From assembly GCA_965248055.1 (NCBI GenBank), contig CBDFIJ010000004.1, positions 2,752,001 to 2,816,000 on the forward strand: a stretch of 64,000 bases of DNA, in the 5' to 3' direction. The notes under the pieces are model-generated. The model was not told the DNA's origin and searched no databases. It was given only the letters and a program-made list of their open reading frames with translations. Numbering within the stretch: the first letter of the stretch is position 1; each line of letters begins with the position of its first letter. Positions 8,749 through 39,336 of the stretch are shown piece after piece. This DNA comes from Candidatus Multivoradales bacterium. GTDB lineage: Bacteria; Acidobacteriota; Thermoanaerobaculia; Multivoradales; JAHEKO01. The position numbers and the translations under genes were made by a program.

Positions 8749-8947
8749 GGGTGAACTCGTCTGGCCAGGAGCCCGACGGTCGGGGTCTTCTCGACTCGTT
8801 GGCGGCGGTCTCACTAGCATCACACTCTATCGCCTGATTAGCCCCTCAAGAGCTAGGGATGCTATGATCATCACAGTTTTGTAGCCCCAACTTGAACCCG
8901 AACTTGGGTAACTTTTTCGTCGATGAAGGCGAAACGGAGGTTGTGTC

Positions 8948-9118
8948 ATGTCTAAAGTTGCACCGTTCCACAGTTGTAAGAATCGAGGCGTCTACCATGT
9001 GTGCTCGGAGTGCACAGAGGGAAACAACATCGAGACAAAGTACAAGACTGCGGGCAAGGGTGGTGGGCGCTTGTGCAAAGCTTGCGCCCGCCGGATGACC
9101 AAGAAAGGCACCTGCTAA
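8948..9118 (+). CDS. Small (56 aa) Cys/His-rich hypothetical protein, not in the ORF track
   Basis: RBS GGAGG 7 nt before ATG; MSKVAPFHSCKNRGVYHVCSECTEGNNIETKYKTAGKGGGRLCKACARRMTKKGTC*; two CxxC motifs. Confidence 0.72.
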   Translation: MSKVAPFHSCKNRGVYHVCSECTEGNNIETKYKTAGKGGGRLCKACARRMTKKGTC

Positions 9119-9233
9119 GCGTACTTGACCGTTCGTTTTTATCGATGGCCGATGAGCCGGATTCTCCGGTAACCATCAAGCTGTGCTTGGTGGTGGTGAG
9201 TATGCCGGATAGTCCGGTGATTGAAGTGGGGTC

Positions 9234-10317
9234 TGCATAAGTTCAGAAACAAATGGCACTCGTTCAATGAGGAGTGTCGATGAGCATGAGGTTGATCAGA
9301 GGGCGTTTTCAAGGCCTGGTACATCTTCGTCATCTAGGGGTATCTTGGGTCATGACCCAAGATAGCGCTGAGAAACGTATCCGCGCATTGAGATTCTGGC
9401 AGGAGCATGGGATCGATGCAGCGATCGATGCATTTTCGGTGAGCCGGAGGACTCTGTACCGCTGGAAGTCTCGTCTTGGTAGGTGCAAAGGAAAGCTAAG
9501 CTCTCTAAACCCTCAATCAACAGCTCCGAAGAAAAGAAGACGGCGCAAGTGGCCAGCTGAGGTGGTCTCTGAGATCCGTCGATTGCGAGTCAAAGAGCCC
9601 AATCTTGGCAAGGACAAGATCTATCCGCTGTTGAAACCCTGGTGTGAAGTAAGGGGAATTACCTGCCCCTCGGTGAGCACCATCGGCCGCATCATTGGCG
9701 ATGCTCCCGACAAGATGCGCTTGGTGCCTCAAAGGATTGATCGCCTAGGTCGAGTGAAAGCAAAACGAAAGCGTAAGCCTCGCAAACCTAAAGGAACCAA
9801 GGCATGCTCGCCTGGCCAGTGGGTGGCAGTAGATACCATCGAGCGATTCTGTGATGGCCAACGCCGGTACTTGATCACTCTGACCGATGCCGCCAGCAGC
9901 ATGAGTCTGGCAATAGCTACCAACTCCCACACCTCGAGCACGGCAGCGCGCTTTCTGGACCTGAGCCTTGATATCTTGCCATTTGCTGTTACTACCGTGC
10001 TCTCAGACAACGGTAGTGAGTTTCAAGGAGCCTTCGACAAGAAAGCTGCTGAGGCTGGAATCAAACGCTGGTACACCTACCCCAGGTGCCCGAAGATGAA
10101 CGCCCAAGCCGAGAGATTCAATCGAACCATCCAAGAGAAATTCGTTGACTACAACGAAGACTTGCTCTTCACTGACCTCCAAGCTTTCAACCAAAAACTC
10201 TTCGACTGGATGCTCTGGTTTAACGCCGAAAGGCCCCACTGGAGCCACGGACAAAGACCACCGCTACAATACGTAGCTGAACATACCGATCAGTGCCAAA
10301 TGTCATGGACGCATACA
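9234..10317 (+). mobile_element. IS481-like insertion sequence, copy 1 (1084 bp)
   Basis: Imperfect terminal IRs TGCATAAGTTCAGAAACAAATGGCACT / rc TGTATGCGTCCATGACATTTGGCACT; 5-bp TSD GGGTC (9229-9233, 10318-10322); near-identical copy at 36136-37219. Confidence 0.93.
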
Positions 10318-10332
10318 GGGTCTTGGCATTGA
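9280..10332 (+). CDS. DDE transposase (HTH + rve integrase core), IS481-like; stop codon lies outside the IS
   Basis: HTH VSRRTLYRWK; DDE triad VAVDT / LSDNGSEF / AERFNRTIQE; WFNAERPHWS. Confidence 0.93.
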   Translation: MSMRLIRGRFQGLVHLRHLGVSWVMTQDSAEKRIRALRFWQEHGIDAAIDAFSVSRRTLYRWKSRLGRCKGKLSSLNPQSTAPKKRRRRKWPAEVVSEIRRLRVKEPNLGKDKIYPLLKPWCEVRGITCPSVSTIGRIIGDAPDKMRLVPQRIDRLGRVKAKRKRKPRKPKGTKACSPGQWVAVDTIERFCDGQRRYLITLTDAASSMSLAIATNSHTSSTAARFLDLSLDILPFAVTTVLSDNGSEFQGAFDKKAAEAGIKRWYTYPRCPKMNAQAERFNRTIQEKFVDYNEDLLFTDLQAFNQKLFDWMLWFNAERPHWSHGQRPPLQYVAEHTDQCQMSWTHTGSWH

Positions 10333-10351
10333 GGCCATTGTTCACTAAAAT
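10323..10351 (+). promoter_or_regulatory. Sigma70 promoter of the rpmI-rplT-pheST operon
   Basis: TTGGCA (10323-10328), 17 bp, TAAAAT (10346-10351); ~47 bp before the rpmI ATG. Confidence 0.75.
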
Positions 10352-10398
10352 CTACTGTTCGACCCGTTCTCGGGTTGTTGAACTTGGAGACGAAGCAA

Positions 10399-10593
10399 AT
10401 GCCGAAACAGAAGACCCATCGTGGCGCCAAGAAGCGCTTCAAGCTTACCGGTACCGGGAAGGTGCGTCGTCGCCACTCGATGAAGAGTCATATCCTGACC
10501 AAGAAGTCCACCAAGCGGAAGCGCAAGCTCCGCAAGGACACCGCAGTGTCAGGAGCCTTCGCCAAGATCATTAGAAATATAATCGGCGGCTAG
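10399..10593 (+). CDS. rpmI: 50S ribosomal protein L35
   Basis: [22 protein letters not shown]...HILTKKS.KRKRKL; RBS GGAG. Confidence 0.97.
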
Positions 10594-10668
10594 ACCCCAG
10601 ATCAGGGTTTGGCGGAGGAACCGTCCGCTTAAGCTGCAACATATCAACCAAACTAACGGGGTTCATCA

Positions 10669-11034
10669 ATGAGAGTAAAACGCGGAACTAATCGCGCCCA
10701 GCGGCGCAAGAAGATTCTCAAGCAGGCGAAAGGCTTCTATGGCCGCAAGTCCAAGGCCCATCGGGTAGCCAAGGAGGCGGTGGACCGCGCTGGTTCATTC
10801 GCCTATCGCGACCGGCGCAACAAGAAGCGTGATTTTCGACGGCTGTGGATCGTTCGCATCAACGCTGCCGCTCGTCAGAATGGCCTTTCCTACAATCGAC
10901 TGATCTTTGGCTTGAACCAAGCTGGCTGTGAAGTTGACCGCAAAGTGATGGCGGACCTTGCGGTGCGAGACCCGCAGGCATTCGCCCAATTGGCGGAAAC
11001 GGCCAAGAACGCAATCGAAGCCGCCGGTAACTGA
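10669..11034 (+). CDS. rplT: 50S ribosomal protein L20
   Basis: MRVKRG...AKGFYG...[23 protein letters not shown]...DRKVMADLA. Confidence 0.98.
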
Positions 11035-36021: not shown

Positions 36022-36135
36022 AAAAACATCATATGTGATTCAACTCACTACTGCTCCAAAGTAGGACAGGGCCATGCCCTGCGCGCGCCTTCTGTGCAGA
36101 GAGCGGGCTGAGCCTAGCCAATAGCCTCCCGCCTC

Positions 36136-37219
36136 TGCATAAGTTCAGAAACAAATGGCACTCGTTCAATGAGGGATGTCGATGAGCATGAGGTTGATCA
36201 GAGGGCGTTTCCAAGGCCTGGGACATCTTCGTCATCTAGGGGTATCTTGGGTCATGACCCAAGATAGCGCTGAGAAACGTATCCGAGCATTGAGATTCTG
36301 GCAGGAGCATGGGATCGATGCAGCGATCGATGCATTTTCGGTGAGCCGGAGGACTCTGTACCGCTGGAAGTCTCGTCTTGGTAGGTGCAAAGGAGAGCTA
36401 AGCTCTCTAAACCCTCAATCAACAGCTCCGAAGAAAAGAAGACGGCGCAAGTGGCCCTCTGAGGTAGTAGCCGAGATCGGTCGATTGCGGGTCAAAGAGC
36501 CCAATCTTGGCAAGGACAAGATCTATCCGCTGTTGAAACCCTGGTGTGAAGTAAGGGGAATTACCTGCCCCTCGGTGAGCACCATCGGCCGCATCATTGG
36601 CGATGCTCCCGACAAGATGCGCTTGGTGCCTCAAAGGATTGATCGCCTGGGTCGAGTGAAAGCAAAACGAAAGCGTAAGCCTCGCAAACCTAAAGGAACC
36701 AAGGCATGCTCGCCTGGCCAGTGGGTGGCAGTAGATACCATCGAGCGATTCTGTGATGGCCAACGCCGGTACTTGATCACTCTGACCGATGCCGCCAGCA
36801 GCATGAGTCTGGCAATAGCCACCAACTCCCACACCTCGAGCACGGCAGCGCGCTTTCTGGACCTGAGCCTTGATGTCTTGCCATTTGCTGTTACTACCGT
36901 GCTCTCAGACAACGGTAGTGAGTTTCAAGGAGCCTTCGACAAGAAAGCTGCTGAGGCTGGAATCAAACGCTGGTACACCTACCCCAGGTGCCCGAAGATG
37001 AACGCCCAAGCCGAGAGATTCAATCGAACCATCCAAGAGAAATTCGTTGACTACAACGAAGACTTGCTCTTCACTGACCTCCAAGCTTTCAACCAAAAAC
37101 TCTTCGACTGGATGCTCTGGTTTAACGCCGAAAGGCCCCACTGGAGCCACCGACAAAGACCACCGCTACAATACGTAGCTGAACATACCGATCAGTGCCA
37201 AATGTCATGGACGCATACA
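36136..37219 (+). mobile_element. IS481-like insertion sequence, copy 2 (1084 bp)
   Basis: Same ends as copy 1; 5-bp TSD GCCTC (36131-36135, 37220-37224); about 18 substitutions versus copy 1 by manual count. Confidence 0.93.
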
Positions 37220-37228
37220 GCCTCTTGA
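36182..37228 (+). CDS. DDE transposase, IS481-like; TGA stop lies in the groES -35 box
   Basis: Near-identical to 9280-10332; ends CAT ACA|GCC TCT TGA. Confidence 0.93.
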   Translation: MSMRLIRGRFQGLGHLRHLGVSWVMTQDSAEKRIRALRFWQEHGIDAAIDAFSVSRRTLYRWKSRLGRCKGELSSLNPQSTAPKKRRRRKWPSEVVAEIGRLRVKEPNLGKDKIYPLLKPWCEVRGITCPSVSTIGRIIGDAPDKMRLVPQRIDRLGRVKAKRKRKPRKPKGTKACSPGQWVAVDTIERFCDGQRRYLITLTDAASSMSLAIATNSHTSSTAARFLDLSLDVLPFAVTTVLSDNGSEFQGAFDKKAAEAGIKRWYTYPRCPKMNAQAERFNRTIQEKFVDYNEDLLFTDLQAFNQKLFDWMLWFNAERPHWSHRQRPPLQYVAEHTDQCQMSWTHTAS

Positions 37229-37253
37229 CTTGATCCTTTAGGGTTCGTAGAAT
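37225..37253 (+). promoter_or_regulatory. Sigma70 promoter of groES-groEL
   Basis: TTGACT (37225-37230), 17 bp, TAGAAT (37248-37253), immediately followed by CIRCE. Confidence 0.88.
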
Positions 37254-37279
37254 TAGCACTCGTCAAGAGAGAGTGCTAG
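37253..37279 (+). promoter_or_regulatory. CIRCE element (HrcA operator)
   Basis: TTAGCACTC-gtcaagaga-GAGTGCTAG; matches TTAGCACTC-N9-GAGTGCTAA with one mismatch. Confidence 0.95.
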
Positions 37280-37351: not shown

Positions 37352-37642
37352 GTGAAAATTCGTCCGCTTCATGACCGCGTAGTGGTCAAGCGCCTTGAGT
37401 ATGATGAAGAAGAAGTTCGAGGTGGCATTATTATCCCCGACACTGCCAAAGAGAAGCCTCAGCAGGCAGAAGTGGTAGCCGTCGGCCCCGGAAAGCTGAA
37501 GGAAGATGACAGCCGCTCGACCATGGATGTCAAGGTCGGTGACCGCGTCTTAGTCGGCAAGTACTCCGGTAGCGAGATCAAGTTTGACGGCGACGAACTC
37601 GTCATCATGCGCGAGGACGAGATCCTTGCGGTACTCAACTAA
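37352..37642 (+). CDS. groES: Co-chaperonin GroES
   Basis: [38 protein letters not shown]; GTG start with RBS AAGGAG. Confidence 0.98.
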
Positions 37643-37677
37643 GCAACACTACAGAAACTAGTCGCTAGGAATACTAA

Positions 37678-39336
<1,659 letters not shown>

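Follow-up and report, generated by a model that had tools for sequence, protein, structure and literature searches.

IS481-like insertion sequences at a fixed distance upstream of sigma70-type promoter motifs in a Multivoradales genome and in relatives across phyla

How does a mobile element come to lie, twice within one stretch of DNA, exactly five bases upstream of a promoter-like sequence? We addressed this question for a window of 64,000 nucleotides (C4:2752001-2816000, contig CBDFIJ010000004.1, in the 3.4-Mb assembly GCA_965248055.1 of a Candidatus Multivoradales bacterium), which holds two ~98% identical copies of an insertion sequence (IS) that we call IS-A, an IS481-like element of 1084 bp with a 5-bp target-site duplication (TSD). 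An earlier reading made from the sequence alone (the sequence-only reading) had placed both copies 5 bp upstream of a sigma70-type -35 box, and its TSDs, common orientation, 17-nt spacers and coordinates were all borne out (Table 1). As it had also remarked, the flanks are otherwise unrelated: the two-copy alignment shows no further relation between the sequences around copies 1 and 2, and each end of the element occurs exactly twice in the window (chance expectation 0.00). The position, orientation and motif register of the insertions recur across a phylogenetically broad set of relatives and are absent from control IS families. IS-A is probably an active IS481-like element that integrates selectively at sigma70-type promoters, with the holoenzyme-bound promoter as a somewhat more likely than not selector.

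Insertion sites of IS-A, its relatives and control elements

IS-A has 14 right ends in the genome, 13 of them independent, as two represent one event that was later duplicated. Counting from the first base past the right end, TTG occupies +6 to +8 in 10 of the 13 (one further end reads GTG), and TTG-N17-TAnnnT is complete in 8/13. The chromosomal background per position is 0.020 for TTG and 6.7e-5 for TTG-N17-TAnnnT (449/6,691,864 positions), and the binomial probability of eight full motifs among the 14 right ends is ~1e-30. The right flanks also share C at +5 (10/13) and A at +30 (12/13), and a perfect 5-bp TSD is kept in six of the nine two-ended copies (GGGTC, GCCTC, GGAAT, CTTTC, ATCGC and TTTCC). 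A family-assigned, co-directional gene or RNA follows 10/14 right ends, and three more are followed only by unassigned open reading frames (ORFs). The downstream genes include Fic, an M48 fragment, subtilase, B12/radical-SAM, acid phosphatase, rpmI, groES, another IS (twice) and a tRNA-Arg that starts 61 nt past the IS end. The suggestion that strong housekeeping promoters are the targets was therefore too narrow: with Fic, subtilase, radical-SAM, acid phosphatase, tRNA-Arg and another IS among the downstream genes, the targets appear to be promoters in general, not housekeeping promoters alone. One IS-A copy is itself interrupted, at IS positions 91-98, by an IS256-family element with an 8-bp TSD (C4:944234-945664).

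A second IS481-like lineage in the same genome, IS-B, shows a similar arrangement. IS-B is 1252 bp long (TGACCTAGATCA...TGATCTAGGACA; example C4 2999120-3000371, L015), and its transposase, only 29% identical to that of IS-A, ends at a TAG within the right inverted repeat (IRR) and matches NF033577 as its best family (186.6 bits; IS3 91.2). TTG stands at +6 to +8 in 11/13 IS-B right ends and TAnnnT follows at N16-18 in 7/13, with near misses that include TATAAA and TAAAAA; seven copies have clean 5-bp TSDs. An IS-B relative in another genome ends ..CTAGGACA, followed by ATTCC, TTGACT, an 18-nt spacer and TAGACT, though matches in 4/301 genomes of the phylum, own genome included, are too few for statistics. 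One IS-B copy follows immediately on an IS-A right end and precedes CAATC TTGACA-N16-TATAAA, a junction that reads as two promoter-seeking elements stacked before one promoter. Two IS-A copies abut IS-B, and we rejected the idea that each hit the left end of IS-B independently: the two junctions represent one event later duplicated because they are identical over ~140 nt bar 2 mismatches. The IS-B TSDs mismatch at this junction. Another IS-B copy is interrupted at an internal CTAG by an IS5-family element (C4:2838460-2839775, L172; CTAG TSD).

To look beyond this genome, we chose relatives by transposase similarity only, blind to flank sequence. A metagenome scan with a six-sequence alignment kept the best 80 of 375 relatives, of which we used 65 loci (40-49% identity); in the 15 dropped, the match stops before residue 325/326 and the IS end is unlocated. 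TTG occurs at +6 in 53/65, and TTG with TAnnnT at N16-18 in 47/60 (five loci with <36 nt of flank being omitted from the -10 counts only), with spacers of 17 (31 loci), 16 (14) and 18 (2). When offsets 1-45 were scanned, TTG appeared at exactly +6 in 48/59 flanks and in at most five at any other offset, TAnnnT peaked at +29 (36) and +28 (14), and T26 and G27 were enriched in the manner of an extended -10. In control windows on the contigs of these loci, TTG occurred in 15/832 and the full motif in 0/832. A co-directional ORF starts within 250 nt downstream in 23 of the 29 metagenomic loci that have at least 400 nt of sequence there. The prediction of TTG at +6 to +8 and TAnnnT at about +28/+29 past the right end thus held in the own genome, in a gammaproteobacterial metagenome-assembled genome (MAG) and in 65 metagenomic homologs, as did the constant orientation of insertion across copies and homologs. 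The habit is no peculiarity of this one IS; it extends to a large cross-phylum clade and to the 29%-identical IS-B lineage.

Species genomes supplied twelve further loci at 42-50% identity, from Gammaproteobacteria MAGs, several Patescibacteria and one Oxydemutatoraceae MAG; many of the named relatives are Patescibacteria MAGs, and the metagenomic contigs carry no taxon names. The ten loci that reach the C-terminus end ..TGGACnnATACA, and 6/10 then continue with N5-TTGACA/T and a -10 at N16-17. One gammaproteobacterial MAG (G001) carries a family of its own, IS-C, with 17 right ends that reduce to 15 unique flanks; 8/15 carry TTG at +6, 8/15 TAnnnT in register and 5/15 the full motif, and in one of the flanks with TAnnnT a poor -35 precedes a perfect TATAAT. 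The same MAG contains many solo IS-C right-end remnants of 39-60 nt, 5 bp upstream of promoter-like sequence (L050, L051, L054, L056-L059, L065), and three such remnants lie within a tandemly repeated unit. To judge from these remnants, decayed copies leave an IRR "scar" before putative promoters. A quick, unfinished tree, in which the long-branched rows L028, L029, L158, L187 and L195 carry the wrong ORF and which we used solely for group separation, places IS-A with ISKpn28, IS-B and canonical IS481 in separate groups.

The closest named relative is ISKpn28, found on plasmids and chromosomes of Klebsiella and other Enterobacteriaceae, whose transposase is ~43-46% identical to that of IS-A over >90% of its length. 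Its transposase has matches in 2256 plasmid records, under the NCBI label "IS481-like". Like IS-A, ISKpn28 has a 5-bp TSD, homologous tips (right ..GGTGGACCCATACA; left TGTGTAAGTTCA.., with TGT) and an ORF that runs out of the element without a stop. Unlike IS-A, it shows a weaker promoter habit, and many of its plasmid contexts are rearranged and without a TSD. Two ISKpn28-like loci illustrate the arrangement: TCTCC followed by TTGCCT-N17-TACTCT, a strict motif by hok (L071), and GCATT followed by TTGATT-N17-AAAAAT, with a near-miss -10, before an integrase gene (L174). Table 3 of PMC13733257 gives 11 ISKpn28 loci, nine of them with a 5-bp direct repeat (DR) and five of those nine with TTG next; at its site C, in Klebsiella pneumoniae, the insertion arose during the experiment, inside nlpD, with DR GGTGG and then TTGCTT. 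This copy lies ~0.7 kb upstream of rpoS. The main rpoS promoter of E. coli is located inside nlpD, and the nlpD copy may be an insertion at the rpoS promoter. In the passages of PMC13733257 considered here, promoter targeting is not mentioned, and the word "promoter" occurs only once, in a gene name. A relative 75% identical to ISKpn28 is present on E. coli chromosomes, e.g. upstream of yegH (L173, NZ_CP075472.1), at 696 chromosomal places among 1089 matching genomes of 5426, with 38 places in one genome; among the matches listed, it is mostly annotated as a partial "integrase core domain" pseudogene.

Control elements lack the arrangement. Within 50 nt of either end, we found no promoter motif beside an IS256-family element of the own genome (1431 bp, 8-bp TSD, 4 copies) or an IS5-family element (1316 bp, CTAG TSD, 6 full copies and fragments). 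Bordetella-type IS481 inserts into NCTAGN with a 6-bp duplication. Canonical IS481 elements of the same phylum (NF033577 >300 bits; TGTGTTTTCTAAG...CTCACA) occupy NCTAGN in 7/7 copies in G185 (L206-L212) and 6/6 in G302 (L213-L218), with NCTAGN duplicated in 13/13, and the copies in these two genomes have no adjoining promoter. The promoter habit therefore seems to belong to particular IS481-like lineages, not to the whole family. An IS481-family element of a further genome (G133; L219-L224, NF033577 227 bits) ends ..GGAATGCACC in 6/6 copies, and the 3' end of an opposite-strand tRNA gene (TGG plus acceptor/T-arm GGATTCGAACC) lies 9-11 nt past the IS end; in 4/6 copies ARAGORN identifies the tRNA, as Pro(ggg), Pro(tgg), Ala(cgc) or Ile(gat). 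Because the G133 copies adjoin tRNA 3' ends, their sequence points to a third target habit within the IS481 family, tRNA-gene 3' ends.

What selects the insertion site

We infer that the whole sigma70-type promoter is recognised, not the TTG word alone, because the -10 is enriched given TTG, is kept without TTG, and belongs to a flank logo that resembles sigma70. Given TTG, a -10 is in register at 4.3% of control positions versus 47/49 of the metagenomic flanks. In the own genome, TTGAC is followed by an in-register -10 at 129/8390 sites and, outside long ORFs as drawn on a crude gene map, at 75/1295. Seven of the 11 metagenomic flanks that lack TTG at +6 still keep TAnnnT in register (background 31/832 = 3.7%; P=3e-8). 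The metagenomic logo is that of natural sigma70: cTTGaca, TGn and a TAnnnT whose A and final T are the strongest letters, with spacers of 16-18 distributed as in natural promoters. A bare preference for GnnTCTTG, which the sequence-only reading had set against promoter targeting, is thus not what the enriched -10 indicates.

A composite signal with a flexible spacer makes the RNA polymerase holoenzyme the most economical reader, and we lean, with modest confidence, towards the promoter as RNA polymerase sees it being the selector. The transposase would integrate beside holoenzyme-occupied promoters with single-base precision, strand transfer being placed so that the target duplication covers the five bases directly before the -35 hexamer. 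In the insertions seen, the right end of the IS faces the putative promoter throughout, with the transposase gene co-directional to it, and the core promoter (-35, spacer and -10) is left intact as the IS replaces everything upstream. Because the -35 is fixed at +6 while the -10 shifts with spacers of 16-18, the anchor is the -35 side, which would in turn point to contact via sigma region 4 or the alpha C-terminal domain (alpha-CTD), or to DNA distortion or a bend just upstream of the -35. Class II activators dock just upstream of the -35, and the transposase would take up the class II activator position. Copy-out/paste-in chemistry is assumed here by analogy with the family. Co-folding region 4 of the host sigma70 (L161, residues 478-565) with the transposase, as represented by alignment A2, gave a score of 0.02, which is evidence neither way.

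Several observations weigh against a promoter-selecting element. Three of the 13 independent IS-A ends are without the motif, the exceptions being a truncated copy in or next to a PKD/Ig ORF, a copy abutting IS-B and one reading GTGACA-N17-TATACT; the strict full motif is present in only 7/13 IS-B right ends; and IS-C is looser still (TTG 8/15, full motif 5/15). Among seven ISKpn28-like loci there are one strict case (L071), one near miss (L174), one unclear case (L173) and four without the motif (L069, L070, L072, L175), several of the motif-less loci being rearranged and without a TSD, and TTG follows the DR in only 5/9 of the DR-flanked loci in Table 3 of PMC13733257. All promoters were called from motif only, the gene map behind the count outside long ORFs is crude, and every insertion examined is a survivor, so that post-insertion selection is formally not removable. 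Lastly, the IRR of the clade contains a near-invariant TTGCAC box, 20-25 bp from the tip; the transposase would thus already bind a hexamer of TTG type, a point in favour of its reading the -35 directly from DNA.

Such direct reading, in which the helix-turn-helix (HTH) of the transposase recognises (c)TTGnnn in duplex DNA with RNA polymerase uninvolved, and the -10 is either read by a second subunit or reflects some property of promoter DNA, is the main rival. Within the target, TTG carries far more information than any other part (54, 54 and 50 of 60), and the site of insertion keeps its distance to the -35 rather than to the -10. TTGCAC is near-invariant at IRR positions 20-25 of the clade, and TTGC.. 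hexamers are frequent among targets (16/60 at the fourth position). A reader of TTG or TTGAC nevertheless predicts an in-register -10 at only ~4-6% of sites, not 47/49, and does not account for its retention at 7/11 sites without TTG. Spacers of 16-18 in natural proportions together with an extended -10 TG are a signature of sigma70 holoenzyme, not of a rigid protein ruler, and the box geometry differs, at 20-25 bp from cleavage in the inverted repeat versus 6-11 bp in the target. On this balance we regard direct readout as unlikely.

That there is no real targeting, with insertion random or weakly biased and harmless upstream-of-promoter copies surviving, is very improbable. Only fixed, surviving copies were examined, and sites upstream of promoters are plausibly harmless; but the single-base register (48/59 at +6) and constant orientation are beyond what selection can yield, and so is the company of TTG with a -10, because insertion at a non-promoter intergenic TTG would be at least as harmless. 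The IS5 and IS256 elements of the same genome lack adjacent promoter motifs, the kindred canonical IS481 elements sit in NCTAGN, and the de novo ISKpn28 event, seen by comparing parent with derivative, gave a 5-bp DR and then TTGCTT (Table 3 of PMC13733257).

The chance that the promoter is part of the element, the IS being ~35 bp longer with an outward promoter, is practically negligible: many ISs do carry outward -35 boxes, and Pout and hybrid promoters are described for Bordetella IS481 in the relevant part of PMC6161684, but here the 5-bp direct repeats separate the IS end from the -35, spacer and flank sequences are unrelated among copies, and the thrS-rpmI spacer of a sister-genus genome (G002) carries TTGGAT-N17-TAAAAT free of any IS, so the rpmI promoter is native to the host and not IS-borne, and TSD positions and this IS-free ortholog together refute the idea. 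A by-eye look for a circle-junction promoter (-35 in the IRR, -10 in the left inverted repeat (IRL), at workable spacing) found none that was convincing.

Element structure, reading frame and surroundings

The IS481 family, in the ISfinder sense, is defined by one transposase ORF with an N-terminal HTH and an rve DDE core, without programmed frameshift. IS-A has these features: a single long HTH and rve DDE ORF without programmed frameshift, matching Pfam rve, rve_3, HTH_32 and HTH_23, with D/D/E columns that are invariant in transposase alignment A2 (which leaves out L032, L035 and L036 for stops or frameshifts). Its length of ~1 kb, TGT...ACA-type inverted repeats (right tip ..ACA, left tip TGC) and short direct repeat are further such features. 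The best NCBIfam match is IS481 (NF033577) at 176.9 bits, ahead of IS3 at 107.5; the curated equivalog cut-off of 224 bits is missed by IS-A and by IS-B (186.6). On these matches "IS481-like" is the right label, because NF033577 is the best match yet below its cut-off. The ends are imperfect inverted repeats of ~25 bp (TGCATAAGTTCA...TGGCAC, with TGTATGCGTCCA...TGGCAC on the complementary strand), and the clade consensus of the IRR, read from the tip inward, is TGTAT..CCACCC..TTTGCACTC.

The transposase ORF of IS-A has no stop inside the element, and the target supplies it. Copy 1 stops at a TGA (10330-10332) within the target promoter, and the stop of copy 2 (37226-37228) is the TGA inside the -35 TTGACT. 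Among the 65 metagenomic clade members, none (0/65) has a stop in frame over the final 20 codons within the IS, and in 29/65 the first stop is the TGA at +7 to +9, part of a TTGA.. -35. The frame ACA NNN NNT TGA would allow any TTGA.. -35 at +6 to terminate the transposase, and from this arrangement reading frame and target have evidently co-evolved. A target-supplied stop would account for the pseudogene label that these transposases receive from annotation pipelines; according to the pertinent part of PMC13733257, automatic annotation gives this label to ISKpn28 copies "lacking a canonical stop codon". Taking the two themes together, the broad proposition that two deep IS481-like lineages, from Patescibacteria to Gammaproteobacteria, use promoter-bound sigma70 holoenzyme as target selector, and that the -35 TTGA gives one lineage its stop, seems to us evenly poised.

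The features of the two window copies are collected in Table 1. Behind the copy 2 promoter, at 37253-37279, lies the inverted repeat TTAGCACTC-N9-GAGTGCTAG, which we take to resemble the controlling inverted repeat of chaperone expression (CIRCE). Between thrS and IS-A copy 1, at 8948-9118, there is a 56-codon Cys-rich ORF (CxxxxxxxxCxxC...CxxC); the ~480-nt stretch that contains it has no counterpart in G002, where the rpmI promoter follows thrS within ~60 nt. Across the surroundings of this copy (8900-10700), DNA contigs of one sample, taken from four runs, are interrupted at the ends of the IS, with no empty-site joint among them, and the loose contig ends past 10317 read N5+TTGAC and are other copies in the same genome. 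Three contigs of the own assembly (C1-C3; 14.8, 16.7 and 28.4 kb) have 39-43% G+C versus 57% for the chromosome and could be plasmid, phage or contaminant.

Table 1. Features of the two IS-A copies and their target promoters (window positions)
Feature	Position	Strand	Basis and details
Left TSD, copy 1 (GGGTC)	9229-9233	.	same 5-mer at 10318-10322
IS-A copy 1, TGCATAAG...GCATACA	9234-10317	+	two-copy alignment; 14 right and 9 left ends in genome
IRL, copy 1	9234-9259	+	read from sequence; imperfect pairing with reverse complement of 10293-10317; inner box TGGCAC
Transposase ORF, copy 1 (HTH and rve DDE core)	9280-10332	+	ORF 9274-10332; ATG 9280 behind GAGGAG
IRR, copy 1	10293-10317	+	read from sequence; also codes transposase C-terminus ..WTHT
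Right TSD, copy 1 (GGGTC), abuts -35	10318-10322	.	sequence
Target promoter rpmI-rplT (putative)	10323-10351	+	sequence motif; -35 TTGGCA (10323-10328), N17, -10 TAAAAT (10346-10351)
rpmI (10399-10593) and rplT (10669-11034), downstream, co-directional	10399-11034	+	ORFs; names read from translations
Left TSD, copy 2 (GCCTC)	36131-36135	.	sequence, alignment
IS-A copy 2	36136-37219	+	~98% identity to copy 1
Transposase ORF, copy 2	36176-37228	+	stop TGA 37226-37228; frame ACA GCC TCT TGA
Right TSD, copy 2 (GCCTC)	37220-37224	.	sequence
Target promoter groES-groEL (putative)	37225-37279	+	sequence motif; -35 TTGACT (37225-37230), N17, -10 TAGAAT (37248-37253), CIRCE-like repeat (37253-37279)
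groES (37352-37642) and groEL (37693-39336)	37352-39336	+	names from ORF sizes and the sequence-only reading

Comparison with known promoter-targeting and IS481 elements

Promoter-directed transposition is so far known only for Mutator-like transposases: the promoter-targeting elements TnGBS, ISLre2 and ISKra4 leave 13-17 bp between the insertion and the -35 downstream of it, and such targeting was called unusual among prokaryotic transposases in 2014 (both from the relevant portion of PMC3942029). The parallel with TnGBS and ISLre2 drawn by the sequence-only reading is correct by the same portion of that paper. For IS481-like elements, we found no description of promoter targeting in open-access full text (PMC, bioRxiv), ISfinder/TnPedia, subscription journals and supplements being outside this scope. 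What appears to be new is that a known strategy is carried out by an unrelated enzyme, under another geometry and coupled to the stop codon.

An unrelated DDE family with another geometry would represent convergent evolution, and its E. coli-compatible relatives would offer a second system for the study of promoter reading. Should the holoenzyme indeed be the reader, transposition guided by RNA polymerase would have been invented independently a second time, with CTAG or tRNA-gene 3' ends as the targets of sister lineages. Each copy may naturally mark a sigma70-type promoter with single-base resolution, which would be useful in uncultured lineages without maps of transcription start sites. The same habit predicts that landing sites of ISKpn28-like elements in Enterobacteriaceae are promoters severed from upstream activator or UP sites with the core kept, and it could provide a basis for promoter-proximal, orientation-defined integration tools.

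Canonical IS481 resembles IS-A in its single ORF with HTH and rve, its length of ~1-1.1 kb, its TGT...ACA tips and its short TSD, and differs in that NCTAGN is duplicated and no promoter adjoins (G185, G302). In Bordetella, transcripts that leave IS481 run into genes whichever way these point (46 same, 38 opposite, 17 intergenic), as reported in the part of PMC6161684 on this element. Like TnGBS, ISLre2 and ISKra4, IS-A has imperfect inverted repeats and inserts in an oriented manner upstream of sigma70-type promoters, as judged by motif. Unlike these Mutator-like elements, it encodes a transposase that matches rve and HTH families only, and the distance from the inverted repeat to the -35 is 5 bp, with the TSD abutting the -35, in place of the 13-17 bp given for the three in the cited portion of PMC3942029. 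A further difference from all three is that, in the IS-A clade, the -35 can supply the stop codon of the transposase.

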